IMG/VR virus record: IMGVR_UViG_3300045988_154888
Coordinates: 1-58,947 of that record
Reading direction: 5' to 3' (one strand)
Length of the DNA stretch: 58,947 nucleotides
DNA from: a virus
Part shown: positions 2,854 to 57,866 of the stretch, piece after piece
Layout of the letters: each line of letters begins with the position of its first letter
How positions within the stretch are numbered: position 1 is the stretch's first letter
Notes under the pieces: model-generated
Databases searched by the model: none
Seen by the model: the letters and a program-made list of their open reading frames with translations, nothing else
What the model was told of the DNA's origin: nothing
Translations under genes and position numbers: made by a program

Positions 2854-3254
2854 TCTTCAGCACCAGCACTTCCCTTTTCAGCGGCAGGGCTCACAGGCCA
2901 CTGAATATCGAAGGGGAATCCTTCCTGCTTCGGCAGGTCGCGCAACGCCTGTCTGTATATCGCCCAATCGCCCGTAAGCGCCTCGCCAAGCGTGTGAAGG
3001 AAGCTCAGCCATGCGGTAAACGATGTGCCTGACGGAACAGTAAGCCCAAGCCTGTCAAGCGCGACTTCCGCATCGCTATCCCTAAGAAGCCGGTTTCGAA
3101 TCGTCCGCGCAATTTCAGCCGCAGTTTCCGCGTCTCCGTTGGCAATCGCCGTCCCAAGCGCCTGTTCTTGCATCTCCGGCAGTTCCGCAAGCTGCTTATT
3201 GGTCATGGCTTCCGCTCGTGCAATCCTTTTCTGCCATCCGACTACAACATTCAT
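2850..3254 (-). CDS. Hypothetical protein, possibly tail-fibre assembly/chaperone-like
   Basis: 134 aa. Overlaps the RT stop by 4 nt. The segment IRNRLLRDSD resembles the Caudovirales tail-fibre assembly protein motif. This is weak evidence. Confidence 0.35.
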   Translation of the reverse strand: MNVVVGWQKRIARAEAMTNKQLAELPEMQEQALGTAIANGDAETAAEIARTIRNRLLRDSDAEVALDRLGLTVPSGTSFTAWLSFLHTLGEALTGDWAIYRQALRDLPKQEGFPFDIQWPVSPAAEKGSAGAEE

Positions 3255-4342
3255 TTTTTCAATACCTCCCGAATCAATTTGTTGAGATAGGCTTCCATCT
3301 GAATAACAATGCCGTGCGTATTTCCACGCTCTGCATTGGCTTTCCAGCTTTGAAAATTTGTGCGCATATCATCCAGCGTGCATTTACCGTCAAGCACCCT
3401 CCGCTGGAGCTTTTTCAGCTTCCGGCGCTCTTTGGCAATGGATTGCTTGCTCATCCGGCGAACCACTTTACCGCTGCCGGTAAGGATGAAACGCCATTTG
3501 AGGAACATCACGCCCTGCTTGAGCGGATGGATATGCGTTTTTGCGTTCAGCGTAAGGCCAAGCCGCGCAAGCCTCTCCGTAATTTGCCGCAAACATTCTT
3601 CCAGAAATGCCTTGTCGCTGTGAATGAGGATGAAATCGTCCATATAGCGGATGTAATACTTTACGCCAAGGCGTTCCTTCACCCAATGGTCGAAGTCATC
3701 CAGCAAGGCCAGCTCCACAAGCTGTGAAACCTGACTGCCAAGGCCAATGCCTTTATCGCCGCCAAAACTGTCAATGATTTCTGCCGCACGGCGATATGCC
3801 TCATCATCTGGCACGCGCTTACGCACGGCAGCCTTTGCGTCCTCATGCCGGGTTTCGGCGAAGTAGTGATGGATGTCGCATTTCAGCACCCAGCCATTGG
3901 GGCCATGGTGGCGATAGTAGCGGTGCAGGTGCGTATCCATCCTGTTGAGCGCATCATCAACACCCTTCCCGCGCTGGCAAGCACAGTTGTCGCGTAAAAA
4001 GCTGCGCGTAATCTGCGGATAAAGGATGTTATCGCACAAGCTGCGTTGAAACTGCCTGTCTTTAATGCGTGTAGCGACAATTTCACGTTCCTTCGGCTCG
4101 TGAATCGTGAAATGTTGGTAGGCATCAATGGCGTATTTATCTGCCAGCAAACTGCGACGCAGCTTATAGGTGTTTTTCAGCGCATTGGCATGGTAAGTAG
4201 CGACGCTATCCTTCCATTTCACATTGCGGCTGCTCTTGCACAGGCCCTTATACAATTCGCCGAACGATATTGCGCTTTCGTACTCTTGTCCCATAAAAAG
4301 AACCGGCGTGGATAGCAGTAACAGCTCGAATGCTGACTGCAT
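3251..4342 (-). CDS. DGR reverse transcriptase
   Basis: 363 aa. Has the RT motifs, including the DGR-typical LGSQVSQL ([ILV]GxxxSQ) and the catalytic YMDD. Sits immediately downstream of the TR and avd. Confidence 0.9.
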   Translation of the reverse strand: MQSAFELLLLSTPVLFMGQEYESAISFGELYKGLCKSSRNVKWKDSVATYHANALKNTYKLRRSLLADKYAIDAYQHFTIHEPKEREIVATRIKDRQFQRSLCDNILYPQITRSFLRDNCACQRGKGVDDALNRMDTHLHRYYRHHGPNGWVLKCDIHHYFAETRHEDAKAAVRKRVPDDEAYRRAAEIIDSFGGDKGIGLGSQVSQLVELALLDDFDHWVKERLGVKYYIRYMDDFILIHSDKAFLEECLRQITERLARLGLTLNAKTHIHPLKQGVMFLKWRFILTGSGKVVRRMSKQSIAKERRKLKKLQRRVLDGKCTLDDMRTNFQSWKANAERGNTHGIVIQMEAYLNKLIREVLKK

Positions 4343-4435: not shown

Positions 4436-4460
4436 TACTTTAAGCTGGCATTCTCACAAT

Positions 4461-4569
4461 CTGCGGCCGCGCCGTTACCGTTCGACGCATTGTTGTTGTT
4501 CAACGAGCCGTCCGGGTTGACGTTGCGCACGTTGTTCGCGTTCCACGGGTTGGGCGAGCGCATCCACCA
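4461..4569 (-). repeat. DGR template repeat (TR)
   Basis: 109 nt, non-coding, between avd and RT. Aligns without gaps to 5148-5256 and 35070-35175. The coding-strand reading is AAC-rich (WWMRSPNPWNANNVRNVNPDGSLNNNNASNGNGAAAA). Confidence 0.9.
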
Positions 4570-4605: not shown

Positions 4606-5070
4606 TCAATCACCCTGCGCGGGTGCGGAACCATCCATGACGGCGGCGGTTCTTCCTTCTCCAATGGATTTATAGCGTTCTCGGTCGCTCTTGCGCCAGC
4701 CTTTGAGCTTGTCCTCTACTTCAAGGATGAGGCCAGTCCAATATTCTACACGGTCAGATTCGATGCCCAATTCCGTATAGGCGATGTCAATCAAAGACAG
4801 CAACGCTTCTGCGTGGGAAAAGGCTTCGACCTGCTGACTGCGCCGGTAGGCATAGTCCTCCGGCTCAACAACCCTCACGGCGTTTGCCCTGCGAATGCAG
4901 GTCATAACGGCAAGCGCTTCGTTGACAATGGGCTGCGTGAGAATCCATCTATCGCGCTTTGGAAAGTTTTTCTCATTTTTGCAAATGGTGATGGTGTATG
5001 CGCACATTTCCCGCACCTTCGGCAGAATTTCAAACTTTCCGGGCTGACGCTTTGCTTTAATGACGCTCAT
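4606..5070 (-). CDS. avd: DGR accessory variability determinant (Avd, four-helix-bundle protein)
   Basis: About 154 aa, basic, with FPKRDRWILTQPIVNEAL... resembling the Avd / 23S-rRNA-IVS protein family. Located between the target gene and the TR. An alternative start at 5088 is possible. Confidence 0.75.
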   Translation of the reverse strand: MSVIKAKRQPGKFEILPKVREMCAYTITICKNEKNFPKRDRWILTQPIVNEALAVMTCIRRANAVRVVEPEDYAYRRSQQVEAFSHAEALLSLIDIAYTELGIESDRVEYWTGLILEVEDKLKGWRKSDRERYKSIGEGRTAAVMDGSAPAQGD

Positions 5071-5095
5071 AGAACTGCCTTTCTGCATTCAAAGC

Positions 5096-5124
5096 ACATC
5101 CGCGCCCTGAACGGGCACGGATGT
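5096..5124 (-). promoter_or_regulatory. GC-rich hairpin 3' of VR1 (DGR target-recognition cruciform candidate)
   Basis: acatccgcgccc / gggcacggatgt stem with 1 mismatch and a 5-nt loop. Starts about 24 nt beyond the VR1/IMH end. Confidence 0.6.
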
Positions 5125-5130
5125 TATGGA

Positions 5131-6342
5131 TTAGTAGATTACGCAAGCTGCGGCCGCGCCGTAACCGTTCGACGCAGTGCCGTAGTACAAAGAGCCGTCC
5201 GGGGTGACGATGCGCACGTTGCTCGCGTCCCACGGGCTGGGCGAGCGCATCCACCAATATCGTGCGGTAGACGGGCTGTCAACATCGTATTTAATGCGGT
5301 CAACCTGCGTCGCGCCATCGTAGAACGGAAGCACGGTTCCCTCTGCGATGGTATCGTTCTTGCCAAGGCCAAGCTCGGTCATACTGAGCAGGAATACCTT
5401 GTCGCGGGTGGTGTAGCTGCCGCCCAGCGTGTCGCTCGTTTCATAGACCGTATTTCTCGCGGTTACGATGTCCACCTCACCAAGCGCGGCGGCAAAGTCC
5501 GGGTCGATGCCGTTAAGGAAACCAGCGACGCTGGCATAGCTCGGGGCCATGTCGAAGATGGTCTGCCGCTGCCACCAGCCGCTTGCAGCGTCGCTGTTGA
5601 GCCATTGCCGGATAGCGCTTTCCTGCCAGTTGTTGCTTCCATAGGCACGGCGCATAATGGAATTGAAGCGGCCAACCGTGTGGACACAATCTGCCTTTGC
5701 GTTGCTGGCCGTGCCAAGGCTCGTACCGCCGCTTGCGGCAGTAACGACAATGCCGGTTTCAAGCACGCTGCCGTCCGCATTGTAGGTCGTGATGGTCGCG
5801 CCGGTAATATTGGCAACCTTGTAATCCGCTGCGTTGGCGTACCACGCTCCGACCTTCGGATGCGTCCAGCCGCCGCCAGCAGGGATAGGCTGCGCAATCG
5901 TAAACTGGTACGTGCCGTCCTCGTAGGTCTGACCGCTGTTGCTGCCCTTATACAAGGTGAAGTTATAGGTTCCAGCGGCCAAAGCGCTGTCGCTGTTATT
6001 TACCCAGAGCAACTCGCTGGCATCCACCTGACGACCGTAGATGACATCGTGCATCAGCAGCGTCATGGTGTGAGCAGTCAGGTCGTTCGGGTTTTTGTGC
6101 ACATCATGTGCAACGACATCAAACAGCAGGCTGCCGCCGCCATACGCCGTATGAGGCACGGAAAACTGTGTGCCAACGGGGAAATAGCGTTTGCCGCCGC
6201 CGCCCTTCACAATCTCCTGCACAGCCGCAAAGCTGTCGATGTTCCAGCCGCTTGCAAGCACCTTTACGAGCGAATTTTGCACTTTCAGCTCGTCAAGAAT
6301 CTGCTGCTGCGTACCCTCGGTGAAAATATTCAGGTCAGACAT
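5131..6342 (-). CDS. DGR variable protein 1 (C-type-lectin-fold, tail-fibre-associated receptor-binding candidate)
   Basis: Start chosen at ATG 6342 (GGAGG at 6351-6355), just after the upstream stop at 6347. The C-terminus WWMRSPSPWDASNVRIVTPDGSLYYGTASNGYGAAAACVIY carries VR1. Confidence 0.85.
   Translation of the reverse strand: MSDLNIFTEGTQQQILDELKVQNSLVKVLASGWNIDSFAAVQEIVKGGGGKRYFPVGTQFSVPHTAYGGGSLLFDVVAHDVHKNPNDLTAHTMTLLMHDVIYGRQVDASELLWVNNSDSALAAGTYNFTLYKGSNSGQTYEDGTYQFTIAQPIPAGGGWTHPKVGAWYANAADYKVANITGATITTYNADGSVLETGIVVTAASGGTSLGTASNAKADCVHTVGRFNSIMRRAYGSNNWQESAIRQWLNSDAASGWWQRQTIFDMAPSYASVAGFLNGIDPDFAAALGEVDIVTARNTVYETSDTLGGSYTTRDKVFLLSMTELGLGKNDTIAEGTVLPFYDGATQVDRIKYDVDSPSTARYWWMRSPSPWDASNVRIVTPDGSLYYGTASNGYGAAAACVIY
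5148..5256 (-). repeat. DGR variable repeat 1 (VR1)
   Basis: 109 nt aligned to the TR with 13 mismatches. 12 of them are at TR adenines on the coding strand (T on the plus strand). Confidence 0.9.
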
Positions 6343-6346
6343 TGAT

Positions 6347-30137: not shown

Positions 30138-30168
30138 AGAAAAAGCAGACAGATGAATTTCTGTCTGC
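30138..30168 (-). terminator. Rho-independent terminator (downstream of the TA pair, just upstream of gene 30114)
   Basis: gcagacag / ctgtctgc stem with an 8-nt loop, followed on the minus strand by TTTTTCTTT. Confidence 0.7.
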
Positions 30169-30306
30169 TGAATTCGGTTATTCTAATTATACATCCGAAA
30201 TTTTGAATTGAAAAGGGGGCAAATCCGGTGCAACGGGGGGTGCAAATGCGAAATCATGAATATTCTGCAAAAAGCCGCGCAGGATTTCCCCCGCGCAGCC
30301 TTTTCT

Positions 30307-30627
30307 TCACTTGTCCAGCAGGTCGCTGTGCGTTCCCGTTCGGGTCAGGGTCAGAACCAGCACATTTTCTTCAATACGGTAAATCAGCAGCCAATCCGGC
30401 AGAACGTGACATTCCCGATGCCCAATCCAGTTGCCTGACAGGCTGTGGTCGCGGTTCTTTTCCGGCAGCGCTTCACCCTTGGCAAGCAGGGTGACAATTT
30501 CCGCGAGAGCTTCCATTTTCAGGCCGCGCTTCTTCGCCAGCTTGTAGTCCTTCCGAAACTGCGCGGTGACTGCAAGGTCGTACTTCGTGCACTCGTTGTC
30601 GAGGCCATCCAGAAAGCTCTTACTCAT
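30307..30627 (-). CDS. yafQ: Type II toxin, YafQ/RelE family mRNA interferase
   Basis: 106 aa. Motif DHSLSGNWIGHRECHVLPDWLLIYRIE is YafQ-like. Confidence 0.75.
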   Translation of the reverse strand: MSKSFLDGLDNECTKYDLAVTAQFRKDYKLAKKRGLKMEALAEIVTLLAKGEALPEKNRDHSLSGNWIGHRECHVLPDWLLIYRIEENVLVLTLTRTGTHSDLLDK

Positions 30628-30911
30628 TCCTCGTCATCCTCCAAATCGGAGAACAGCTCCTTGACGCTGTGGTAGCGCTTTGCATTGGGGTCTTTTGCAA
30701 TCCTCTCTGCTTCCAGCAGCGCAGCCATCGTTTCCCGATTGGGGCGGTCATCCAGCCGAACATCGAACGGGAAGCCGCCAGCACGAATGGACTTGCGCAG
30801 GAATACATTGATGGCAGTAGAGAGGTTCATGCCCAAAGCTCCGTAAATCCCTTCGCATTCCCGCTTTACGTCGGAATCCATCCGAACAGTGACGTTAGTG
30901 CTTGTGCTCAT
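30624..30911 (-). CDS. dinJ: Type II antitoxin, RelB/DinJ family
   Basis: 95 aa. VTVRMDSDVKRECEGIYGALGMNLSTAINVFL is DinJ-like. 4-nt overlap with the toxin gene. Confidence 0.7.
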   Translation of the reverse strand: MSTSTNVTVRMDSDVKRECEGIYGALGMNLSTAINVFLRKSIRAGGFPFDVRLDDRPNRETMAALLEAERIAKDPNAKRYHSVKELFSDLEDDEE

Positions 30912-30988: not shown

Positions 30989-31492
30989 TTATTCGGCCAT
31001 CTGATAGATTTTCTCCATCGCACGCTGTTTGAGGCGCTTCAAGGAATCCTTTGACGTTTCCTCCTGAAAAGCAGTCTTGAACTTGCAGACGACCTCTTTC
31101 CAGTATTCCCCGTCGATGACCTGATGTTCCACAATCCAGCGTTCCCGCTCGGGCAAACCGTTCAGCCATGCCGAAACGAACAGCACGGTGAAATACCTTT
31201 GTTCATGCTCCTGCCGGGTTTCTTTCAGCTCGGCCTGCATTTCCAGAATATCATCCGGCACCCAGCCAGAGGCGAGCATGATACCCAGCTTCTCGGTTGG
31301 GTTTCCCACGGTCGTTCCGTGCGGCATACCAGACAACTGCTGCGGCCTGACGGCGGTCACGTCCTCATCCATGGTCGCCATCGCCTGTCGGATGGCCTTT
31401 TCAAGCTGGCTGATTTCCGCTTCCAGATGACCGCAACGTCCAACCTCGAAACGGTACGCTTTCAGCATTTCGTCAACCTTTTCGCGTGTCAT
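30989..31492 (-). CDS. Sigma-70 region-4-like phage transcriptional regulator (ArpU/RinA/DUF1492-type late activator candidate)
   Basis: 167 aa. C-terminal LPERERWIVEHQVIDGEYWKEV...LKRLKQRAMEKI resembles sigma region 4. Confidence 0.5.
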   Translation of the reverse strand: MTREKVDEMLKAYRFEVGRCGHLEAEISQLEKAIRQAMATMDEDVTAVRPQQLSGMPHGTTVGNPTEKLGIMLASGWVPDDILEMQAELKETRQEHEQRYFTVLFVSAWLNGLPERERWIVEHQVIDGEYWKEVVCKFKTAFQEETSKDSLKRLKQRAMEKIYQMAE

Positions 31493-33370: not shown

Positions 33371-33621
33371 TATCGGTAGTTCCTTCCCGTGCGCCTGTCC
33401 CTGACCTCTACGCGGGCGGTCAGTTCAAACCCGGCGAGGTCGATGAGGGTCTTGATGGACTTAATCAGACGGTTACAGCGCAAGTCGGCCTCGTCCAATT
33501 CGAGCTGCTTGTCCCGCATGACGTTGGTGAGCGCGTCATGCGCGGTCAAATCCATATAGCCCTCGGTATTGCGCAGCGGAACGCGCATTTCGTCGCTCAT
33601 CCTCGGATACACCTCCCGCAA
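33370..33621 (-). CDS. Hypothetical protein
   Basis: 83-aa ORF on the operon strand. Confidence 0.4.
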   Translation of the reverse strand: MREVYPRMSDEMRVPLRNTEGYMDLTAHDALTNVMRDKQLELDEADLRCNRLIKSIKTLIDLAGFELTARVEVRDRRTGRNYR

Positions 33622-34142
33622 GATTCAAGCTCGTGACATACGCCGCCGTGCCACAGGCAATTTGGAACCAGAAACTCGGCGATTTCAGGCATGACCTTAG
33701 CCACTTCATCGCACATCATCCCGGCGACCTCCCGCGTCTTTGCGCTGGCCTTGCTGCACAGCCGCTTATTGGCGACGGTCATGAGTTCCTCCGCATTGCA
33801 GAAGAAAATCATATCCACAGGAGTATTTCGGGGCGCTTCGTCGCCGTTCATGCGGTCTTGCCGGTCGTTGCGCAGGCTGGAAACGAACGGGACGGCGTGG
33901 ACATGGCGGGCAAAGTGCGTCGCCGTGTTCGAGGGAATGTTCTCAATCAAAAACGCGAAATTCAGCACGCGCACGGGTGAATGGCGGGCATTGAGAACAT
34001 CCCGCAGGAGCTTCGAGGACGGAGCGGAGACAGGCGCTTCGGTCTTTCCCATCGTAACCCAGATGCAGCGCTTGAACAGCATCAGCTCCCGTTCCTCCGG
34101 CCAATAGATGAGCGTTACCTTGATTTCGGGCTTATTTTCCAC
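33597..34142 (-). CDS. Divergent ThyX-like (flavin-dependent thymidylate synthase fold) protein
   Basis: GTG start at 34142, 6 nt after AAAGGAGGG. HSPVRVLNFAFLIENIPSNTATHFARHVHAVPFVSSLRNDR aligns with the ThyX HETPFEH..F.F....RHRxxS...S.RY region, but the RHR motif is degenerate. Confidence 0.45.
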   Translation of the reverse strand: MENKPEIKVTLIYWPEERELMLFKRCIWVTMGKTEAPVSAPSSKLLRDVLNARHSPVRVLNFAFLIENIPSNTATHFARHVHAVPFVSSLRNDRQDRMNGDEAPRNTPVDMIFFCNAEELMTVANKRLCSKASAKTREVAGMMCDEVAKVMPEIAEFLVPNCLWHGGVCHELESCGRCIRG

Positions 34143-34143
34143 G

Positions 34144-34353
34144 TCAAGCCCTCCTTTCGTATCGCTGAATGGTGCCGTCATTAAATTCGACGGTGATATG
34201 CGGCGGGTACTTCGCACAGACCTTTCGCGGTTTGAACTGTACGGCCTTGATGCGTTTGGGCGTAACATGCTGCTTTTCGCATTCGTCGCACTCTTTTTTA
34301 TCGGCGTAAAGCGTGCCGCAAAACTCGCACTTGTACTGCGTAATTTCCTGCAT
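34144..34353 (-). CDS. Small zinc-ribbon protein
   Basis: 69 aa with CEFCG...CDECEKQH. Confidence 0.5.
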   Translation of the reverse strand: MQEITQYKCEFCGTLYADKKECDECEKQHVTPKRIKAVQFKPRKVCAKYPPHITVEFNDGTIQRYERRA

Positions 34354-34993: not shown

Positions 34994-35019
34994 CCTTTCA
35001 CACCTCCGTGCCGGTTATC

Positions 35020-35042
35020 TCCGCGCCCTGTACGGGCGCGGA
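35020..35042 (-). promoter_or_regulatory. GC-rich hairpin 3' of VR2 (DGR target-recognition cruciform candidate)
   Basis: tccgcgccc-tgtac-gggcgcgga. Starts about 28 nt beyond the VR2 end. Analogous to the hairpin after VR1. Confidence 0.6.
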
Positions 35043-35055
35043 TTGCCGGATTCTT

Positions 35056-35853
35056 TCAGATGACGCAAGCTGCGGCCGCGCCGTAACCGCCCGACGCATA
35101 GTTGCTGTTCAACGAGCCGTCCGGAGTGACGTAGCGCACGAAGTACGCGTACCACGGGATGGGCGAGCGCATCCAGTAGCAGGATTCGTCGCCGCTGGGG
35201 GAATCGGTCTTTTTGCGATTCTCAGGATTTTCGTAGAACGGATACGTCGCGCCCTCATCCTTGATATTGTCGCCGGTAAAGCCCAGCTCGGAAGCGGACA
35301 GAAGGAACAGCTTGTCCTGCGTCGTATACGCTTCGCCGCCCTCATCATCATTGCGGTAGGTGGTCTTTTCGACCCGGCGCATAGCTTCACGGTCGGCCTC
35401 CGGGAAGCCGGAAAGGAAATACTTGTTCAACCAGTTCCGCAGATTGCAGGTATCCCACGCATTGTGGCCCCAGCAGTATTTCTTGCTTGGCGTATCAAAG
35501 GGAAGGTACATATCGTCCAGCACATTGGTCATATGCAGCGTGACGGTCTGGCGCTTCTTCCCGACCTCCTGCCCATCTATGCCAACGCCAATTACCGTCC
35601 AGTCAATATTGCCGAAACGGTTGTGGTGCGAAATGATGCGGTCGCCTACTTTGAGATTGATGCTGCCATCATCCAGCAGGCTGCTCATTTCGGCAAGGCT
35701 CTTGCAGTACACGCAGTCCCAAGCCTTCTGGGCGATTTCAGGCTCTTTCAGCGCTTCAACGCCCTGCCGGAGCGAATGGAGGTTCTGCTCCAAGCCGGAG
35801 ATTTTTTCAAGCATGACCTCTTTGACCTGCTCAATGCTCATCATACTTTCCAT
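35056..35853 (-). CDS. DGR variable protein 2 (small C-type-lectin-fold protein, remote target)
   Basis: 265 aa. The C-terminus YWMRSPIPWYAYFVRYVTPDGSLNSNYASGGYGAAAACVI carries VR2. The central region (NLRNWLN...LFLLSASELG) is paralogous to target 1. Confidence 0.85.
   Translation of the reverse strand: MESMMSIEQVKEVMLEKISGLEQNLHSLRQGVEALKEPEIAQKAWDCVYCKSLAEMSSLLDDGSINLKVGDRIISHHNRFGNIDWTVIGVGIDGQEVGKKRQTVTLHMTNVLDDMYLPFDTPSKKYCWGHNAWDTCNLRNWLNKYFLSGFPEADREAMRRVEKTTYRNDDEGGEAYTTQDKLFLLSASELGFTGDNIKDEGATYPFYENPENRKKTDSPSGDESCYWMRSPIPWYAYFVRYVTPDGSLNSNYASGGYGAAAACVI
35070..35175 (-). repeat. DGR variable repeat 2 (VR2)
   Basis: 106 nt aligned without gaps to TR 4461-4566. 13 mismatches, 12 of them at TR adenines on the coding strand. 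Confidence 0.9.
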
Positions 35854-35887: not shown

Positions 35888-36286
35888 TTAATCCTTCTCT
35901 GTAATCACCCTGCATTCGGGAACGGCTTCGCCGCCCCAAGGGTAAGGCTCGTCATAGCAGACGCCCCAACCGCCTTTGGGATTGTCGTGCCATGCAAGGC
36001 AATGGCGCAGCGCGGCGTAAATGTTCCATGCCCGATGATGCAAAGCGTCCTTTTTGCACTCAGGCGTGCCGTAGGCCGTGCGGCCAAAGATGACGCAGGC
36101 GACGATTTGAAGCAAAGCAGCAGCCGTATCTCTGCGCTCGCAATAATTCTCCGCGTCGCGCACATCAAGCATCATTTCGACGATGCGCTCAAACTGGCCA
36201 ATTCTCAGGCGGGCATACAATTCGCAAGCGTCCTCGACCATCTGCGCCTGTTCTCTGGCCAAGGTCAGAACCACTTTTTCAGCCAT
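35888..36286 (-). CDS. Hypothetical protein
   Basis: 132-aa ORF on the operon strand. Confidence 0.45.
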   Translation of the reverse strand: MAEKVVLTLAREQAQMVEDACELYARLRIGQFERIVEMMLDVRDAENYCERRDTAAALLQIVACVIFGRTAYGTPECKKDALHHRAWNIYAALRHCLAWHDNPKGGWGVCYDEPYPWGGEAVPECRVITEKD

Positions 36287-37310: not shown

Positions 37311-37724
37311 CTACATATCGAAAATCGAAACGTCCATTCTGGGCATATCGTCGTACCGTTTGGAAATCTCCGTGTATACGATTTGCCGGTCATCGTTGTA
37401 CGCAACGCCGTTGAGCGCATCGGCAACCACCTTGCATACGTTATCAATATCAGGCTTCTTGGCCGGGCGAATCTCTCCGTCTTTCATCCGCTGCCGCTTT
37501 GCCTTGCTGACAGACTTCGGGATGGAGAAATACGCGGTCACACGCAGCCCAATTTCCCGTTCACCAAAGGAAAGACCAGATTGGCGCTCATACTCGACCT
37601 TGATGAGATTCTCATAGGAGACCGTTTTGCCCGGCGTGTAGGCCGTGACAAAGGAACCCTGCCGGGAGAATCGCGGTCTGCCTTTTCCGACCGGCTCTCC
37701 GGGAACCGTAAAATGAACCTCCAT
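37311..37724 (-). CDS. rusA: RusA-family Holliday junction resolvase
   Basis: VPGEPVGKGRPRF...KKPDIDNVCKVVADALNGVAYNDDRQI matches the RusA hallmarks. Confidence 0.85.
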   Translation of the reverse strand: MEVHFTVPGEPVGKGRPRFSRQGSFVTAYTPGKTVSYENLIKVEYERQSGLSFGEREIGLRVTAYFSIPKSVSKAKRQRMKDGEIRPAKKPDIDNVCKVVADALNGVAYNDDRQIVYTEISKRYDDMPRMDVSIFDM

Positions 37725-37745: not shown

Positions 37746-39131
37746 TTACGCTTCTGCATTTCGTTCAATCGGGTAATACCGCATGTGCTTGGAATCGAAC
37801 AGCACACAGGCTTTGCCCACCGCGCCCTGACGCTGTTTTGCCACGCCGATGCAGATATAAGTGAGTTCGCGCTGTTCGTACAGGTCGAAATACTCTCTGT
37901 CTCTTGGGTCAACGTAGGGGTCTTGCGAGCTGGATGGGCGGTGCAGGAAAATCACGCCGTCTGCATCCTGCTCAATATCGCCGGACGCTTTCAGGGATTT
38001 CAGCGTCGGCATTTGTCCGTCCGTATCGCGGTTGACCTGCGCCAGCGCGATGATGGGAATATTGAAATCCGTCGCCATGTCCTTGAGCGACTTGGATATA
38101 TAACCCACACGAAGGTGTTCTTCCTTGATGTTCTTCGCAGTGTGCATGAGTTGCAGATAGTCCACGATGAGCATGTCCAGCTCGCCTTTTTCGACCATAC
38201 GCTGGCACTCCCGGCGTAAATCCTCCACCGTGCGGGTGGTGAACAGAAACTGAATGGGCAGGTTGGCCAGCGGCGAAACCACGTCGGCGATGCTGCACCA
38301 ATCTTCTTCGGTCAGTTCGGCGCGGCGCAGCTTCATTCCATCAATCAGCGCTTCGTGAGAAATCATGCGCTGGCCAAACTGCACGTCCGTCATTTCGCGG
38401 GAAACGACGGCAACCTTGAAGCCCTTTTTCGCGGCTTCCAGCGCGATATTTGCGCCGAACGCAGATTTGCCAACGGACGGGCGAGCGCCGATGACGGTAA
38501 GCTCGCCGCCAAAGAAACCGCCGATGAGCGCATCCACATTGGAAATGCCTGTGGTGATGGATTTTTCTTCGCCCTTTGCCCGCCGCTCAAGGTAGTCATA
38601 GGTCGCCATCATCACATCGACCATCGTCTCGACCTTATGCCCGCCAAGCTCGATGTTTCGGCTTTCGGTGCGGAGCTTTTCAAGCACGGCGTTCAAATCC
38701 TGCGACGGGTCACGAAGCTGGTTGATGACTTCTTCCACCGAGCGAATACTTTGCCGTCGAGCAGACAGCTCTTTCACGATTCGAATATAGCTTTCGATGT
38801 TCTGAAAGCTGAAACTCCCATGGAGACATGCCAGCATAGCGTTGGAAACCGCAGCGCTCTCGGAAGCGAAAAGCTCTGAAATGGTCGCGTCAACCGTAAC
38901 AAGGTCAACCTGCAAGCCCTTGGTAACTGTCGCTTGAATGGCGCGGAATACCTTCCCGTACTCAGGGTAGTAAAAATCGCCCTCGGAAATCTGGGACAGG
39001 ACGGACGAAACGTCCTCGCCCTTCGTCAGCAGGGAATACAGAACGCTTTCCTCCGCTTCCTGCGATGCAAAGTTTTTGCCACCGGCCAGCATGACCTGTT
39101 CGGCGACATAATTGTTATCGGCCATTTTCAA
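37746..39131 (-). CDS. dnaB: Replicative DNA helicase (DnaB family)
   Basis: 461 aa. Walker A GARPSVGKSAF plus DnaB N- and C-domains. Confidence 0.9.
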   Translation of the reverse strand: MKMADNNYVAEQVMLAGGKNFASQEAEESVLYSLLTKGEDVSSVLSQISEGDFYYPEYGKVFRAIQATVTKGLQVDLVTVDATISELFASESAAVSNAMLACLHGSFSFQNIESYIRIVKELSARRQSIRSVEEVINQLRDPSQDLNAVLEKLRTESRNIELGGHKVETMVDVMMATYDYLERRAKGEEKSITTGISNVDALIGGFFGGELTVIGARPSVGKSAFGANIALEAAKKGFKVAVVSREMTDVQFGQRMISHEALIDGMKLRRAELTEEDWCSIADVVSPLANLPIQFLFTTRTVEDLRRECQRMVEKGELDMLIVDYLQLMHTAKNIKEEHLRVGYISKSLKDMATDFNIPIIALAQVNRDTDGQMPTLKSLKASGDIEQDADGVIFLHRPSSSQDPYVDPRDREYFDLYEQRELTYICIGVAKQRQGAVGKACVLFDSKHMRYYPIERNAEA

Positions 39132-39968: not shown

Positions 39969-40757
39969 TTACGCCATCACGACCACGTTACAGCCGTACA
40001 GTCCATTCTTGAGATATTCGGCAATTCGCGCAACCGCCGTATTCTTCCAAGCGCCGCCGTCTGCTTCAAACAGCGCGGCATTCGCCTGTTCGTCGATGCG
40101 CAGGGTGAAATTGCTCTCCGGCTGGTCAACCTCGGCAAAAGTGCGCATGGGCTTGAGGGGGACGGGGTTCTGAAACTGCGTATTGCTGGCGAGCGTAATG
40201 CCCTGCTTAACGGTGATGTTCTGAGAAACGCCGTCATCGCCAACGTTGCAGCTCTGCTCCTTGGTCATGGACTTCATCACCTTGAACAGCTCCGCACGGG
40301 CGGGCGTGTCGATGAAGGTGGAAAGCAGCATGGTATTGAACCGCTCTGTATCCTGATAGCGCCCGAACGTGATTTCCGGGGTATGCGCTCCGCACGAGGC
40401 AATCACATGGCGTTCCTTCTGGTACTTGGAGGGCTTGCCGAGCAGGGCGACGCTCTTTTCGTCCTCCACCATGACGATGAGCTTTTCACCGTCCGGAATC
40501 AACCCTTCAACGTTCTCGTTGATATAGGCGATGAAACCGTCGAGGGTGAAGAAATCAAGCGGCGCGGGCACAGGCTCATCGTCGGGAATGGGCGGCGTGA
40601 TGCGCTCCCACGCCCTGCGATGGCTATTCCAGAACATCTTCGCGCCGTCCACTTCGATGACGGCCTGCTCGTTCTTGTCGTTCGCTTCCTGAATTTCCTT
40701 GCCAATGCCGACGAGCTGTTCAACCAGCTCAGGCGCTCCGTTGAAGAATCCATCCAT
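39969..40757 (-). CDS. Hypothetical protein
   Basis: 262-aa ORF in the recombination/replication block. Confidence 0.5.
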   Translation of the reverse strand: MDGFFNGAPELVEQLVGIGKEIQEANDKNEQAVIEVDGAKMFWNSHRRAWERITPPIPDDEPVPAPLDFFTLDGFIAYINENVEGLIPDGEKLIVMVEDEKSVALLGKPSKYQKERHVIASCGAHTPEITFGRYQDTERFNTMLLSTFIDTPARAELFKVMKSMTKEQSCNVGDDGVSQNITVKQGITLASNTQFQNPVPLKPMRTFAEVDQPESNFTLRIDEQANAALFEADGGAWKNTAVARIAEYLKNGLYGCNVVVMA

Positions 40758-41175: not shown

Positions 41176-41919
41176 TCAAAACGGAATCAGTTCGAGGGGA
41201 ATGCTCATGCCGTTTGCTGCCGCTACAGTCTCGACATGGGTCTGTTCTGTAATCTCCCGCACCATGCGCCGCTCGTCGCTCCGGCTGTCAGACATGTGAA
41301 CAAGGACAATCTTTACGGCCTTGGACAAGTCGTTTGCCGCGAGCGCTTCCTTCAACCGGCGAAGCGACATGTGCGATTCAAGGAGCCGGTTTCTGAGGCC
41401 GGCATCCAGTTTGCCACTCTGCAATGCTTCGTTCATCACTTCGTCGCAGTAATTGCACTCGACCAACCAATAATGCACGCCGGGGAATGTGTACCGCAGA
41501 TAGTAGGTGTCCGTGGCATAGAGCAGCGTTTCGCCGGTGGTCTCATAGCGGACGAGAAAGCCAAGGGGTTCTGCCGCGTCGTGCTGCGTCTCAAAGCCCA
41601 TGACGGTAAATCCTCCAACCCGCATCGGTTGCAGCGGTCTGACGAGCTTTAATTGCGTTAAATAGATATTGTCGTCAAGGGCTTGCTTGGTTCCTGCGCT
41701 GCAATACACAGGAACGCCCCGCCTGACCAATTCCAGAACGCCTCGCGCATGGTCGCCGTGCTCATGGGTGACAAGACAACCAACCACGGAACGGAAGTCC
41801 TTGATGTATGGGAGCATCTTCCTGACGGGAAGCCCTGCATCAAGAATGAGGACTTCCGTTCCGGCTTCCAGCAGGTAGCAATTCGCGCCGCTGCCCGTAG
41901 AAATCACCTGTAGCCGCAT
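41176..41919 (-). CDS. MBL-fold metallo-hydrolase (putative nuclease)
   Basis: HEHGDHARG (HxHxDH) motif. 247 aa. Confidence 0.75.
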   Translation of the reverse strand: MRLQVISTGSGANCYLLEAGTEVLILDAGLPVRKMLPYIKDFRSVVGCLVTHEHGDHARGVLELVRRGVPVYCSAGTKQALDDNIYLTQLKLVRPLQPMRVGGFTVMGFETQHDAAEPLGFLVRYETTGETLLYATDTYYLRYTFPGVHYWLVECNYCDEVMNEALQSGKLDAGLRNRLLESHMSLRRLKEALAANDLSKAVKIVLVHMSDSRSDERRMVREITEQTHVETVAAANGMSIPLELIPF

Positions 41920-42758
41920 CAGAATCCTGGGTCCATATCCTCATCGTAAATTACTGCGGCGGCGGGAGGAGCGGCAGGTGCAGCGGCTTCATGGACAAGA
42001 GCGGCCTCAAGCGCAGGGGCAGCGCTGGTGGGCAGGACTATCGGCTGACCGTTGGCATTCTGCGCGACTTCCGCTTCTATGCGGTCATCGACGGAATCAT
42101 TGGCAATCGTATTGGCGAACTCGACGGACATCACACCGTACTTGGAGATAATGGTCTTGAGGACAGTTTTCAGCGCCATCGCGTCGAAATTGGTATGCCA
42201 TGGGGAATCGGCCTTGCTCCATGCCTTGCTGTAGCGCTTGGCGTGCGCTTCGACCTTTTCCCGCGTCCAGTACACGCACTTTTCAAAGCCGTTCAGGAGC
42301 TGGAAGTAGGCAAAATAGCCAACAGGCGTTTCGCTCTTTGCCGTTCCGCTGATTTCCAACATGCCCGTGATGCGGTTGTAATTCACCAATTCGCCCTCGC
42401 AAACCACGTCGGCGTTGATGTAGCGGTACTGGCCGCTGCGCTGGGCAAGCTGGATAAGGCCGCGGAAGCCGAGCTGGAAAGTGGGAACGTTGTTATAGGG
42501 GATGATGTAAGCGAAGCCGAGCTGCTTATTGATGGGGAGCTTGAGCGTCGCGGCTTTCAGGGCTTCCAGAACAACCCTGTTCGGGTCGCACTTCTGCAAA
42601 GCTCCGTCACTCTGGTACAGCTCGATGATGCTCGCCATGAACGCGCCCGCATTCTCCGCGAGGATGTTGCGAAAATTCTGCTGCATCGTTTCGTTGTTCA
42701 AGATACCTTTCAGCTTGGCAAGGCTGTTGGTCTTGAGGGTAACTTGAGTTTCAGCCAT
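41919..42758 (-). CDS. recT: RecT-family single-strand annealing recombinase
   Basis: Start at ATG 42758, after CAGGAGGTG. RecT-like core (GFAYIIPY...GYFAYFQL). Confidence 0.8.
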   Translation of the reverse strand: MAETQVTLKTNSLAKLKGILNNETMQQNFRNILAENAGAFMASIIELYQSDGALQKCDPNRVVLEALKAATLKLPINKQLGFAYIIPYNNVPTFQLGFRGLIQLAQRSGQYRYINADVVCEGELVNYNRITGMLEISGTAKSETPVGYFAYFQLLNGFEKCVYWTREKVEAHAKRYSKAWSKADSPWHTNFDAMALKTVLKTIISKYGVMSVEFANTIANDSVDDRIEAEVAQNANGQPIVLPTSAAPALEAALVHEAAAPAAPPAAAVIYDEDMDPGF

Positions 42759-46920: not shown

Positions 46921-46966
46921 ATTTTACTACGGATAATTGAACTTGTCAATATGCAAAATTCATAAT
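46921..46966. promoter_or_regulatory. Divergent overlapping switch promoters (leftward P-cro; rightward P-repressor candidate)
   Basis: Minus strand: TTGACA (46944-46949), 17 nt, TAAAAT (46921-46926). Plus strand: TTGAAC (46937-46942), 18 nt, CATAAT (46961-46966). Confidence 0.6.
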
Positions 46967-48946: not shown

Positions 48947-50191
48947 GTGGCATCCCTCAACTCAACGTCCAAGCGTAAACGGAAAGGAGAGAGGAAAGAC
49001 GGTTTAATTCAGGTATCGCTCCAAATCGGCAGAAAGCCCGATGGCAAGCCAGACCGACGATACTTCTATGGGAAAACCCGTGCTGAAGCGGAACAGAAGC
49101 GTGATGCGTTTAAGGCCAGCCTTTCGCGTGGTATATCTATCGAGCAGTCCATGACCGTCGAGGAATGGTTGAACACCTTCAAGGCCACATACCGCGAAGG
49201 CGTGAACAAGGCATACATCACCAACGACAACGTGCCGTACAATCGCCTTGCGGCAGCCATTGGCAAGATGAAGATTGCAGACGTTAGGGAGGCACATCTG
49301 CAATCGGCGTTGAACCAAACGGCTGGGATGTCATCCTCGACCGTCACGAAGTATCTAAGCGTCATCAAGCGCGTATTCCGTAAGGCAAGGAAGAACCGGC
49401 TCATTGCTGAAGACCCGTCTGAGGACTTAGCTCGCCCTCCATCCGTCAAGGGCAGCCATCGCGCATTGGAGCGCTGGGAGGTTGACCTCATTCTCGAACA
49501 TTGGCATGATTACGGAGTACGTGCAGGGCTATGGGTGTTGCTAATGCTGCTCTGTGGGCTACGGCGCGGTGAAGTCATTGCTCTGCATTGGGAAAGCATC
49601 AACCTCGCAGATAAAACGCTCAAGGTCTGCGAAACGGCGGTGGTCATTGGCAACAAAACAACCATCGAGCAGCGTGCCAAGACGGATGCCGGCCTTCGCA
49701 CACTGCCCATATGCCAGATGCTGTATGACGCATTGCTCACGGTTCCGCAAGAGGAACGGCATGGACTTGTGTGTTTATCGGCAAGGGGTACGCTTCTGAC
49801 GGAAAGTGCGTTCCTGCGTGGCTTCGAATCTTTCACACGGGCAATGGAGCGAATCGCAAACGGCGAGCCGCCCATGCAGCAAGGCCGCAGGACAGACAAA
49901 GAAACGCAGTCCTCCGAATCGGAGAACCGCGTAAGGGTTTCCTTCCTTCCGCACGACATGCGTCACAGCTTCGCAACAGCGCTCTATGACGCGGGCGTGC
50001 CAGTAAAGGCTGCTCAGTATTTTCTTGGACACTCGGACTTGAAAATCACCCTTGAGCTATATACACACCTTTCAAGGGAACGTGCAGCGGCTTCCAACTT
50101 GCAAATGGTTTCTTATCTCGACAACTGGTTGGAGATGAAGAACCTCGACGCTGTGAAAAACGCAGCTTTGGAGGGCGAAATCGAGCTATAA
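48947..50191 (+). CDS. int: Tyrosine integrase
   Basis: 414 aa. The C-terminal catalytic region HDMRHSFATALY...LGHSDLKITLELYTH supplies the R..HxxR..Y residues. Confidence 0.9.
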   Translation: MASLNSTSKRKRKGERKDGLIQVSLQIGRKPDGKPDRRYFYGKTRAEAEQKRDAFKASLSRGISIEQSMTVEEWLNTFKATYREGVNKAYITNDNVPYNRLAAAIGKMKIADVREAHLQSALNQTAGMSSSTVTKYLSVIKRVFRKARKNRLIAEDPSEDLARPPSVKGSHRALERWEVDLILEHWHDYGVRAGLWVLLMLLCGLRRGEVIALHWESINLADKTLKVCETAVVIGNKTTIEQRAKTDAGLRTLPICQMLYDALLTVPQEERHGLVCLSARGTLLTESAFLRGFESFTRAMERIANGEPPMQQGRRTDKETQSSESENRVRVSFLPHDMRHSFATALYDAGVPVKAAQYFLGHSDLKITLELYTHLSRERAAASNLQMVSYLDNWLEMKNLDAVKNAALEGEIEL

Positions 50192-52609: not shown

Positions 52610-53500
52610 TTATTCTTCCTCGGTATCTTCCTGCTCGCCCAGAATCAGCCGGATAGCCTTTTCTGCACGACCTGCCGCGCTCACAATCAACCGCTTGTCA
52701 TTTTTCAATGCAGAAAGCCAGCTCTGAATGTAGGCGGCATTGTTGCGGAAGCTCTTTGCAGTTTCAAGCCCAAGCTCATGGAGAATGCCACAGGCTCCGA
52801 TTTCTGCGACCAGTTCTTCCTTGGAATAGCTTTCGCTCCCGAATGCAGCGGCGCCATCGTTTTCAGAGAAACGATTGAGCAGGCTTTTATGTCCGGTACT
52901 ATGCGTAAGCTCATGGAAGGTCGTTGCGTAATATCCAGCGCTGTTCTCGAATTGTTCCATTACCGGGAGACTGACAAGATGTCGGCTGGGACTGTAGAAG
53001 GCTCGGTTCTGCTTGCTGTGCTCGATGGTGAGCTTTGCCCTGCCGGAATATTCCGCGATGATTTCTTCGGCACGTTCAACCGGGGAGGCGGTCGCCGGAA
53101 GATGTTCGGCAGTATATTTCGGCTGGATGCCATCGCAATCGTCGATGTGGAATACGTTATAATAGCGGAGCATCGGAATTGGGTCATCTACCGGCAGACC
53201 GTTTTCATCCCGAATGACGTTGCCGCTCGCGTCCTTCTTTTCACGGTGCAGCACCTTCCAGAATACAACCATCTTGGACTTTGCGCCCTTCTTGACCTTG
53301 CCGCCCTCATCCTTGCATTGCTTGAAGGTGAGATACTCGCCGGGCTTGCCGAGCAAAAGCTGGTTGATGAGGCTGTACGGCTTGCCATTGCTGCGGCGAA
53401 TTGCGCCCTCGGAAACTCCTGACCACGGCCTGTTCCACGGAATGATGCCAGATTCAAGCTCCGCAATGATACGGTCGGTAACTGCTGCGAAAATATCCAT
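52610..53500 (-). CDS. ardC: ArdC-like antirestriction protein (ssDNA-binding N-domain + HExxH metalloprotease)
   Basis: Start at MDIFAAV, after GAAGGAGGG. IIPWNRPW motif and FHELTHSTGH. Confidence 0.75.
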   Translation of the reverse strand: MDIFAAVTDRIIAELESGIIPWNRPWSGVSEGAIRRSNGKPYSLINQLLLGKPGEYLTFKQCKDEGGKVKKGAKSKMVVFWKVLHREKKDASGNVIRDENGLPVDDPIPMLRYYNVFHIDDCDGIQPKYTAEHLPATASPVERAEEIIAEYSGRAKLTIEHSKQNRAFYSPSRHLVSLPVMEQFENSAGYYATTFHELTHSTGHKSLLNRFSENDGAAAFGSESYSKEELVAEIGACGILHELGLETAKSFRNNAAYIQSWLSALKNDKRLIVSAAGRAEKAIRLILGEQEDTEEE

Positions 53501-53533
53501 CAAAAGCCCCTCCTTCATGCCGTTCACAACTTA

Positions 53534-56174: not shown

Positions 56175-57866
56175 TCACCCCTCCATTCCAGACGCGAGCA
56201 TGAGCGGTTGCTGTGCGCCGGTATCCAGATAATAGTCCGCATGGGACATGACGTATTCGTAGCGTTCACGGCCTTGAAAGCTGTCTACGACGTGCTGTTC
56301 TTCTGCATTCATATCGGCGTATTTCTTCTTGCCGTAGCTTGGAGGAAGCCAGCCTTTTTTCTGCCCGGCAAACAGGTTGAATTTTTCCAGCAATTCCATG
56401 TCTTTGAAAACAAGATGCGCCGTGCCCTTTTTGAAAAAAGTTACCATGAAATACTTGGTGTCGATGTTTCGGGTATTCTGAGTGGTTTCGGCGATGCGAA
56501 AAACGTTCTCTATATCGCCGGGCCAGTCCGTGCGCCCGCTGTCCAGAAAATCAAAGACCTTTTCGATGTCCCGGAACTTCGACGCGACCCGCCATAAGCT
56601 GAACCGCTTGTCCCAGCTACTGAAAGCGTCGTAGAAGGGAATAATGACCTTTTTACCAACGGAAAAACAATCGTTTGTTTTCCAACCGTCATAATAATGC
56701 CGGTTAGGGCTATCCTCATTCCAGCAGCGAGCGGTCCATTCGTCAAAGAGCTGCACAATGGTATCCTCTACGCCGTTGATGACCTTCCCGTTCATTTTGA
56801 TGACCAGCGTGAGAATGTTATACACCGAAAAATCATAGTCCATAAGGGCATTGACTGAATCGTGAAGCTCGTTGATGAGATTGCTGGTGAGCCGCTGGGT
56901 AATGCTCTCCTGCTGGAATATCATACTCCAATATTTCCTGCGAGTTTGCCGGATATAGGCATTGATTCGCGCATCGTGGTCATGACCGCCAGCATGGAGT
57001 TTCAGCTCTAAAATAGGGCTGGCATACTTATCGCTTGGCCTATCCAGAATGTGAGGAATCATAGCCTCGTATTCTTCAATCAGCCGGATGCCGCAAGCCA
57101 CTTCGTAATTATAGCGATTGACCCATTCTTCAATCTGATTGTATCGCACGATTTCAGCGTATTCCTGCGGTGTTTCTTGCGTCTTGTAGGTTGGAGCCTT
57201 GCGCATATCTTCCATGATAGTGCTGTCAGGCTTCTTCCGGGCAACGGTTTTGTGAACGATAGCAATCTCAACGCCGGAGGACCGCTCTGCATCCGCAAAC
57301 GCACCCGATACATACTCAATACTGCTGTCCGTTTCTAACGCTTTGAGCAGCCGTTGACGCGCAGGGGTGCATGGATTTCGGATGGTTTCAGCATTCAGAA
57401 TGCAGCGCACGGTCCCTCCATGTTCGATAAGCTCCAAGGCATGAAGCAGGTGTTCCGCACCTCGGTCGAACGGCGGGTTCATCAAAATCAGGTCGTAGCG
57501 CTTTTGCGTTTCAAAGGTCAGAAAATCATCATGCACCACGCGGAAGCCAGTATTCTCCAACTGGCTGCGCAAAAACGAATCAATTTCCACGCAGTCGATG
57601 TCGGCCTGTTCCAGCGCTTCCCGTTTGGAATGCTCATCGTAGACAGGGAAGCCTCTGCGGGCTTTGTACATTTTGTTGGCTGCAACACGGGCGAGGTCGC
57701 CTTTTCCTGCGCTGGGTTCCAGCACGCTTTGGGCGAAATTCCAGTCGATGCCCTGCGTCAGCTTGTCGGCCAATGCGGGCGGCGTGGGGTAAAAGTTCTT
57801 CCGGGCATTCTCGTTTTCAATCGAAGCAAGGTTCATCGTGCGCATTTCGCTCATCCTTTCCGCCAT
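56175..57866 (-). CDS. Orphan N6-adenine DNA methyltransferase with large C-terminal (DUF4942-like) domain
   Basis: Motif I VLEPSAGKGDL and motif IV NPPF. No restriction endonuclease gene was recognised nearby. Confidence 0.8.
   Translation of the reverse strand: MAERMSEMRTMNLASIENENARKNFYPTPPALADKLTQGIDWNFAQSVLEPSAGKGDLARVAANKMYKARRGFPVYDEHSKREALEQADIDCVEIDSFLRSQLENTGFRVVHDDFLTFETQKRYDLILMNPPFDRGAEHLLHALELIEHGGTVRCILNAETIRNPCTPARQRLLKALETDSSIEYVSGAFADAERSSGVEIAIVHKTVARKKPDSTIMEDMRKAPTYKTQETPQEYAEIVRYNQIEEWVNRYNYEVACGIRLIEEYEAMIPHILDRPSDKYASPILELKLHAGGHDHDARINAYIRQTRRKYWSMIFQQESITQRLTSNLINELHDSVNALMDYDFSVYNILTLVIKMNGKVINGVEDTIVQLFDEWTARCWNEDSPNRHYYDGWKTNDCFSVGKKVIIPFYDAFSSWDKRFSLWRVASKFRDIEKVFDFLDSGRTDWPGDIENVFRIAETTQNTRNIDTKYFMVTFFKKGTAHLVFKDMELLEKFNLFAGQKKGWLPPSYGKKKYADMNAEEQHVVDSFQGRERYEYVMSHADYYLDTGAQQPLMLASGMEG

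Follow-up and report, generated by a model that had tools for sequence, protein, structure and literature searches.

A small DUF6273 protein encoded among replication genes is a remote second target of a phage diversity-generating retroelement

Second targets of phage diversity-generating retroelements (DGRs), lying at a distance from the template repeat (TR), have been described in several settings. The survey passages of Wu et al. (2018; PMC5758913) mention "many examples" of prophage DGRs that have both an adjacent target and a non-adjacent one within 50 kb, recognized by A-to-N-only differences; in those passages the result is a catalogue, tied neither to a particular protein family nor to an early gene block. 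Gulyaeva et al. (2024; PMC11792537) found "large" and "small" targets with the domain DUF6273 in the Faecalibacterium phage Lelie and the candidate prophage CP11, called their function intriguing and unknown, and reported A-specific variation at both variable repeats (VRs) of CP11 among cognate genomes. Among Toutatis-like phages, 98.8% have the remote target, which lies 17,480 nt from the TR and counts as a core gene, whereas 68% have the DGR (Egorov and Atkinson 2024; bioRxiv 10.1101/2024.10.15.618418). Baykov et al. (2023; PMC10743442) described target 2 of phages nd4 and nd12 as one C-lec DUF6273 domain accompanied by short helices and assumed a role like that of Mtd. Benler et al. (2021; PMC8008677) argued that Quimbyvirus has a second DGR target, away from the structural module, that is non-structural and possibly takes part in phage-host conflict. 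Here we analyze the whole of IMG/VR virus record IMGVR_UViG_3300045988_154888, a stretch of 58,947 nt hereafter called the window, in which one DGR serves a target in the tail module (target 1) and also, in trans, a 265-residue protein encoded at 35056-35853 on the minus strand (target 2), whose repeat VR2 lies 30.6 kb from the TR. An earlier note on this DNA had implied that such a remote second target would be new; the kind has in fact been described since 2018 (PMC5758913, PMC11792537, PMC10743442, PMC8008677).

The features of the cassette and its two targets are given below with the basis of each assignment in parentheses; IMH stands for the initiation of mutagenic homing site at the end of a VR, IMH* for its counterpart in the TR.
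35056..35853, minus strand: target 2 gene, 265 aa (open reading frame list, Pfam DUF6273 at 4e-24, AlphaFold2, hhalign, 51 homologues)
35070..35175, minus strand: VR2 (mismatches to the TR at A; population entropy)
35064..35082, minus strand: IMH-like 3' end of VR2 (alignment with the TR and VR1)
35020..35042, minus strand: GC hairpin or cruciform downstream of VR2 (DNA fold)
4455..4569, minus strand: TR with IMH* at its 3' end, core 4461-4566, between avd and the reverse transcriptase gene (alignment)
3251..4342, minus strand: DGR reverse transcriptase, intact, with IGLGSQVSQ and YMDD motifs (Pfam RVT_1; PHROG 1423, 9e-94; translation)
4606..5088, minus strand: Avd accessory protein (PHROG 3206, "Avd protein of DGR", 2.9e-24; Pfam bAvd, weak)
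5131..6342, minus strand: target 1, DUF6273 protein of the tail module, ~403 aa, with VR1 at 5148-5253 and a hairpin at 5096-5124 (alignment, Pfam, hhalign, fold)

Like the window, Lelie, Toutatis and CP11 have one DGR with a large DUF6273 target beside the cassette and a small one far from it (16-23 kb away in those phages), and the VR lies at the C-terminal part of DUF6273. By the A-to-N-only differences applied in the survey passages of Wu et al., VR2 of the window would be counted among the non-adjacent targets (PMC5758913). Lelie, however, is a myovirus whose cassette runs TR-RT-target (RT, reverse transcriptase), whereas that of the window runs target-avd-TR-RT; repeat coordinates in CP11, with the TR before the adjacent VR, suggest an order like that of Lelie and unlike that of the window. 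Identity of the window with CP11 was also considered, but no 20-mer of the window matched the supplementary prophage contigs of PMC11792537, in files that are probably truncated. The small Lelie target (orf58; VR 40430-40556) lies among methylase, regulator and replication-initiator genes, 15.9 kb from its TR, and continues for about 40 residues after the VR, compared with 4 in target 2. An hhalign comparison of orf58 with the target 2 family covers the VR segment only, at a probability of 32%, and orf58 therefore belongs to a separate subfamily. In nd4 and nd12, target 2 (234-294 aa) resembles that of the window in having its VR at the 3' end, in using the same TR as the larger target, and in that the VRs of one genome differ; VR2 of nd4 (31387-31492) is in a 234-aa gene beside PolIII-alpha-like, SSB and DnaC-like genes, 11.7 kb from the TR. 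Both are myoviruses, and their large target, "tentaclin", has its VR near the N-terminus, unlike the large target of the window; the sole tblastn match between nd4 and the window protein falls on tentaclin, at 23% identity. Quimbyvirus ("Quimbyviridae", phages of Bacteroides) shares with the window a single DGR with two C-lectin targets, one of them after the tail-fibre genes, but it belongs to another phage family with hosts of another phylum, and its distal target is on the opposite strand within a defence and counter-defence island. Target 2 of the window, in contrast, is co-oriented within a replication operon, and searches with Pfam, PHROG and PADLOC found no defence-related neighbours. 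Target 2 is therefore of the same kind as the published small remote DUF6273 targets and has the same Pfam domain, but represents a distinct subfamily.

An ungapped scan of 35000-35300 with the TR core finds a single best register, in which VR2 matches TR 4461-4566 at 93 of 106 positions; the runner-up register has 46 identities. Of the thirteen mismatches, one is C>T and the rest fall on adenines of the TR (12 in all: 8 A>T, 3 A>G, 1 A>C). Only 27 of the 106 TR bases are adenine, so the bias toward adenine is far beyond chance. VR1 (5148-5253) has 12 mismatches to the TR, 11 of them at A. VR2 takes up codons 227-262 of 265, and the peptide IPWYAYFVRYVTPDGSLNSNYASGGYG corresponds to residues 232-258. 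The scan and the translation reproduce what the earlier note had read from the letters, namely the VR2 coordinates, the gapless alignment with its 13 mismatches of which 12 are at A, the 265-aa open reading frame, the peptide and the neighbouring genes.

At the upstream side, homology between TR and VRs ends at TR 4567. At the 3' side, both VRs end in GCGGCCGCAG-C-TTG-C-G where the TR has ...A-TTG-T-G, a difference that, as read from the alignment, is the pattern of IMH versus IMH*. The IMH-type end of VR2, written GGCGCGGCCGCAG-C-TTG-C-G, departs from the IMH* of the TR at the same two positions as that of VR1. The homology of VR2, IMH included, runs on to 35064, and beyond the IMH the flanks diverge (CTTGCGTAATC at VR1, CTTGCGTCATC at VR2). 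A hairpin with a 9-bp GC stem and a 5-nt loop, GTACA, begins 21 nt past the end of homology (35020-35042), within the 62-nt gap ahead of the next gene. The 65-nt stretch around it folds as DNA at -16.3 kcal/mol (z = -2.95 against shuffles), and its counterpart at VR1 (5096-5124) has a 12-bp stem with the loop GTTCA. Alignment and fold thus bear out the earlier description of VR2 as having a 3' flank like that of VR1 and a GC hairpin of its own. Homing in BPP-1 requires a GC-rich hairpin or cruciform 4-34 bp downstream of the VR, with a stem of 7-10 bp and a 4-nt GRNA loop (Guo et al. 2011; PMC3240598). The GC-rich 9-bp stem and the 21-nt distance agree with this, while the 5-nt loop does not; that such a loop works in homing is implied only by the diversification seen (below). 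Loops are of 5 nt in the window phage and of 6 nt in a second lineage, L004 (hairpin at about 10779-10804), and both lineages are hypervariable. Because GRNA is critical in BPP-1, loop requirements may differ among DGR lineages. The VR2 hairpin was also considered as an intrinsic terminator and rejected as such, since no T-run follows it and the terminator scan does not list it.

We next give the evidence from related genomes. Target 2 falls into a cluster of 241 distinct sequences at 90% identity, although cluster sizes are to be read with caution in view of a clustering artefact in the cluster of another homologue, P0034. That cluster holds "members" of 125-144 aa (for example P0082) that are apparently the product of the gene just downstream; the 144-aa ones were rejected as family proteins, being encoded by an unrelated downstream gene. 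In an alignment of 18 relatives of target 2 that are 85-95% identical overall, residues 1-227 are nearly invariant, and the columns that vary correspond to TR codons with an A, namely thirteen AAC or AAT codons together with ATG (M/V/L) and GAC (D/G). The 16 A-containing codons average 2.18 bits of entropy, against 0.09 for the 21 remaining codons of the VR and 0.13 for positions beyond it (Fisher p = 6.5e-4). Relatives whose bodies are 93-95% identical each have a different VR2, changed at A-containing codons, and the closest relative in IMG/VR differs from the window in its VR2 content. Within the window, VR1 and VR2 are identical at 87 of 106 positions, and the two identical substitutions among four co-mutated sites are about what chance would give. 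VR2 diversifies independently of VR1. Only about 15 codons are rewritten, on the C-terminal face of the C-type-lectin-like DUF6273 domain, and the rest of the protein is strongly conserved. A check for invariance of VR2 among relatives thus met variation instead, and this A-codon-specific variation, together with the IMH and the hairpin, upholds the earlier view of VR2 as a competent homing site rather than a decayed copy, and one in current use. We are highly confident that the gene at 35056-35853 is an active remote DGR target.

One close relative, IMGVR_UViG_3300045988_150752, has a VR2 (L007, about 10686-10790) that is closer to its VR1 (97/105) than to its TR (92/105; L024, VR1 at 10407-10511 and TR at 11094-11198). 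By eye, four of the five A-to-N substitutions of VR1 recur in VR2, an excess not seen in the window. Gene conversion between the VRs, homing of related cDNAs and convergent selection on a single ligand are each possible causes of this similarity.

A short and a large DUF6273 target occur together on six IMG/VR contigs. The short protein of the L004 lineage is only about 40% identical to target 2, and the TR to which its VR aligns is about 22-23 kb off, next to the large target; VR/TR mismatches are at A in 11/11, 15/15 and 4/4 cases in three contigs and 14/15 in a fourth. The cassette has the same order as in the window (target, Avd, TR, RT), followed by a 134-aa open reading frame in the position of the chaperone gene of the window and then by probable lysis genes, and a 336-aa open reading frame in which no Pfam domain was found takes the place of the BppU-like gene. 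Five further lineages have GC-stem hairpins downstream of the gene, with loops GGAA, GATA or GGTA that fit the GRNA consensus (PMC3240598). Two lineages lack a hairpin, and their VR is nearly identical across independent samples: in L001-3 (L001 gene end at about 10774) 24 contigs encode the same protein, whose cluster has 3 sequences, and in L008-11 four IMG/VR samples differ by at most 2 nt. Hypervariability of hairpin-bearing members and invariance of hairpin-less ones fit the requirement for the hairpin (PMC3240598). From their sequences, L001-L003 and L008-L011 look like frozen former DGR targets, and because such members persist as intact genes, the family protein is kept even once it is no longer diversified.

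DUF6273 is the sole Pfam domain found in target 2 (4e-24). The AlphaFold2 model (33-sequence alignment, pLDDT 90.7) has a helix at residues 7-34 with heptad-like hydrophobic spacing, a disordered linker at 36-45, and a globular body at 47-265, which agrees with the earlier reading of a short protein with an N-terminal helix and a lectin-like body. Residues 50-265 align with residues 35-403 of target 1 at 99.9% probability (hhalign), where DUF6273 is at the C-terminus; by this alignment, target 2 would be the body of target 1 in minimal form, minus two insertions that target 1 has. A docking module shared by the N-terminal helices of the two targets was considered and rejected, no similarity being found. 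As in Mtd of BPP-1, a variable protein with a C-type-lectin fold, the VR is at the C-terminus, an IMH and a downstream GC hairpin are present, and the AAC-rich codons of the TR are unable to become stops. Unlike Mtd-like receptor-binding proteins, target 2 has only a helix of ~30 residues and a linker before the head, with no beta-prism or beta-sandwich N-terminal domain; unlike Mtd, its gene lies with the early genes, 30 kb from the tail module, and the loop of its hairpin is of 5 nt instead of the 4 nt of GRNA.

The top Foldseek match in the PDB is the DUF6273 N-terminal domain of a secreted IgA peptidase of Thomasclavelia ramosa (9qa6, E = 7e-8), and classical C-type lectins are weak matches. 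This peptidase, secreted and probably anchored to the cell wall, bears the only solved DUF6273 domain (PMC12402451). Foldseek matches in BFVD are DUF6273 proteins of many phages, some short and some labelled tail proteins. A profile search of 1.84 billion representatives returned 16,802 DUF6273 relatives; ~30 of the top 150 matches are full-length short forms, and many others are 2,000-7,000 aa long with several matched stretches. Other carriers of the domain are phage tail or "Hoc-like" proteins and very large proteins with multiple repeats. PHROG 9958 matches target 2 weakly (1e-6) and the small Lelie target at 1e-86.

Homologues that are 36-94% identical to target 2 are all about 250-265 aa long, with an N-terminal helix and an end in GAAAACVI(G). 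Homologue P0016, of 374 aa, has an extra N-terminal domain without a Pfam match. Loci of relatives were viewed as the gene with 10 kb on either side, and the types of context are these:
Window type: tyrosine integrase, RecT/SbcC, DnaB, RusA
L001 type: PolIII-alpha, primase-helicase, PDDEXK
L004 type: serine recombinase, cI-like repressor, two small genes, family gene, DUF3102/ORF6C/DnaB_2
Further types: L008, L019, L020/L055, L021/L054, L022
In L001, a TnpB/IS605 OrfB-type gene (6139-7248) is inserted in the early region of this PolIII-alpha phage, which has a frozen family member. A search by blastn ("distant") with 33-38 kb of the window against 50,697 phage records found nothing, tblastn with the target 2 protein found five weak records and no close relative in culture, and a scan of GTDB representative genomes found four distant loci (Oscillospiraceae, Clostridiales and Faecalibacterium metagenome-assembled genomes, and one weak Clostridium match). 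An exact-pattern scan of IMG/VR with the adenine-masked TR returned one contig, the pattern being too strict to gather VR1/VR2 pairs.

In the window, the cassette lies at 3.2-6.3 kb in the order target 1-avd-TR-RT, flanked by the gene for a BppU-like tail protein (6347-8029) and that for a tail-fibre assembly chaperone (2850-3254). The longest open reading frame for target 1 (5131-6483, 450 aa) overlaps the BppU-like gene by ~137 nt; its likely start is the ATG at 6342, with a ribosome-binding site, 5 nt past the BppU-like stop, which gives ~403 aa. Target 2 was placed by the earlier note in the early/replication block, far from tail genes, and it does lie between RusA/DnaB and MazG/SSB. Its open reading frame is preceded by a good ribosome-binding site. 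RusA (37311-37724), DnaB (37746-39131) and small unknown genes are neighbours, and a Thy1-like fragment, MazG and SSB are downstream. Scans of target 2 and its small neighbours with PADLOC, Pfam and PHROG gave no defence, anti-defence or structural annotation. The 223-aa open reading frame at 33597-34268 aligns with no more than the final ~50 positions of the Thy1 (ThyX) profile (Pfam, 1e-10); it is a remnant, or else a thymidylate-synthase-like protein that has diverged. The gene directly upstream of target 2 (35888-36286) has an N-terminal motif of ~35 residues in common with PHROG 36225 ("transcriptional regulator"). In Lelie, the gene (41459-41950) three genes past the small DGR target encodes a full-length protein of this PHROG, which may be coincidental or point to a weakly conserved linkage.

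Consensus scans delimit a candidate early operon around target 2:
46921..46949, minus strand: sigma-70-like promoter match, TTGACA-17-TAAAAT, 11/12, candidate start of the early operon (consensus scan only)
30144..30169, minus strand: terminator-like hairpin with T-run, where the early operon may end, 4.9 kb past target 2 (consensus scan only)
The promoter-like site is the sole strong match on the coding strand in the window and has helix-turn-helix regulators just downstream. The terminator-like site is the first one downstream of target 2 and follows a sigma-like regulator and a RelE-like gene. The latter, a toxin gene (PHROG 7251, 1e-34) with a small upstream partner (PHROG 2737), occupies 30307-30911 at the end of the putative operon. 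Right after the terminator-like hairpin there is a promoter-like site at 30214-30186, and the region 30144-30214 is a possible early/late boundary. Target 2 is thus a presumed early gene, as judged from gene order and the consensus promoter and terminator scans. Elsewhere in the window, a tyrosine integrase is encoded at 48947-50191 on the plus strand, and past it the minus strand carries an anti-restriction-like gene at 52610-53527, a member of PHROG 2045 and, at 56175-57866, a large gene that is methyltransferase-like. The window looks like the genome of a temperate siphovirus with one DGR. It is probably a complete, circularly permuted phage genome, not a phage with host flank, because contigs with the same target 2 protein span 58.5-62.4 kb.

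By the mechanism known from BPP-1, RNA of the TR would be copied by RT and Avd into cDNA with misincorporation at adenines, and this mutagenized cDNA would replace VR2 in trans, at a distance of 30.6 kb from the cassette, with the IMH that both VRs have and the downstream GC hairpin as guides. The product would be a small, probably oligomeric binder made of a heptad-patterned helix, a linker and a lectin-like head. We favour the explanation that target 2 acts outside the cell as a second, independently tunable ligand-binding head, most likely as an accessory protein for receptor binding or adhesion that its N-terminal helix would bring to the virion, although encoded in the early/replication operon. 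This explanation as a whole, a DGR target served in trans and bearing an extracellular or virion head, we hold to be about evenly poised; the virion-borne or extracellular role, judged from sequence and by analogy, is plausible but falls just short of an even chance. It is favoured because the body of target 2 is that of target 1, a tail-module protein, and because DUF6273 is otherwise found in tail-associated proteins and a secreted peptidase. Target 1 itself adjoins the BppU-like tail protein and the tail-fibre assembly chaperone. The helix-plus-head layout would resemble that of the small receptor-binding proteins of lactococcal phages, which plug into BppU-type baseplates. Mtd of BPP-1, the only phage DGR target studied experimentally, is a virion protein, and surveys annotate most viral DGR targets as tail proteins (PMC8144416, PMC10743442).

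Two alternatives concern the source of variation in VR2. VR2 might be the relic of a duplicated target domain, with A-biased differences left by past DGR activity. One genome cannot separate past from present activity, the VR2 hairpin loop is off the GRNA consensus (PMC3240598), and the family does contain apparent true fossils (L001-3, L008-11). A relic is nevertheless extremely improbable here, given the 241 distinct sequences within 90% identity, the relatives with near-identical bodies that each differ in VR2 at A-containing codons, the differing VR2 of the closest IMG/VR relative, and an IMH, hairpin, RT and Avd that are all intact. Alternatively, the DGR might home only into VR1, and VR2 might vary through gene conversion between these ~110-bp repeats. 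The relative IMGVR_UViG_3300045988_150752, with its VR2 nearer to VR1 than to the TR and several identical A-to-N substitutions in common, is what this would predict, but we consider it very unlikely in general. VR1 and VR2 of the window share substitutions at about the chance level; L004 genomes have 16-19 differences between their two VRs over 105 positions, and one of them has a VR2 that is almost TR-like, with 4 changes, together with 19 differences between VR1 and VR2. VR2 also keeps an IMH and a hairpin of its own, for which gene conversion has no need.

The remaining alternative concerns the role of the protein, and it draws on observations that weigh against the explanation we favour. 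In that regard, the loop GTACA of the VR2 hairpin is not the 4-nt GRNA needed in BPP-1 (PMC3240598), and the consensus scan shows no promoter-like or terminator-like site flanking target 2 itself. Neither Pfam nor the AlphaFold2 model reveals a signal peptide or a recognizable virion-attachment domain in target 2, nor a transmembrane segment, and profile comparison detects nothing in common between the N-terminal helix of target 1 and that of target 2. In all eight contexts with recognizable flanks, the family gene lies between lysogeny/replication genes and TerL, and never in the tail module; in the L004-type prophage it is the third gene of an operon divergent from the cI-like repressor, an immediate-early position. 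The distinct small targets of Lelie and nd4 are likewise placed in early blocks. Target 2 might accordingly be a non-structural early binder, made from the replication operon and cytoplasmic, whose lectin-like face binds a variable protein of the host or of a rival phage, in counter-defence, host takeover or superinfection sensing, with the DGR tracking a polymorphic intracellular partner. Retention of the protein with a frozen VR in lineages apparently without an active target site also favours this, as does the core status of the remote target in Toutatis-like phages of which only 68% have the DGR (bioRxiv 10.1101/2024.10.15.618418). Precedents are the non-structural DGR target proposed for Quimbyvirus, an interpretation that dates from 2021 (PMC8008677) and matches the intracellular role that the earlier note had offered beside that of a fibre tip supplied in trans, and the cytoplasmic DGR-diversified sensors of bacteria (PMC10907252). 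Against it, PADLOC gives no match to defence or anti-defence models and no partner gene is conserved across lineages, those DUF6273 domains whose localization is known are extracellular or virion-associated, the body is homologous to that of target 1, and the early status is deduced solely from the order of genes and from consensus scans for promoters and terminators. We regard a cytoplasmic early binder as a real contender but an unlikely one.

With the virion-borne or extracellular head still the reading we favour, the window provides a well-documented and clearly active DGR that acts in trans over 30 kb within a phage genome. What is added to the published cases is population proof of VR2 activity, the definition of a coherent, dedicated family of DGR targets (an N-terminal helix and a DUF6273 head, ending in GAAAACVI), the contrast between hairpin-bearing and frozen members, and the generality of the early-block address. 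The papers on Lelie and nd4 treat their small targets as possible structural or receptor-binding proteins, and their early-block placement is added here. The family brings its own natural controls, in that members with the hairpin are hypervariable and members without it are frozen. Remote DGR targets are probably under-counted, because the metagenome survey of Roux et al. (2021), as stated there, could not detect them (PMC8144416). It is tempting, if rather doubtful, to see in the small DUF6273 DGR targets a recurrent class of early, non-virion, cytoplasmic hypervariable binders that track a polymorphic intracellular partner; if true, this class would be the counterpart, on the phage side, of bacterial immune sensors diversified by DGRs. 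The central question is why small diversified binders sit so consistently among early and replication genes, and the role of these small targets would decide whether phage DGRs serve host recognition only, or intracellular conflict too.

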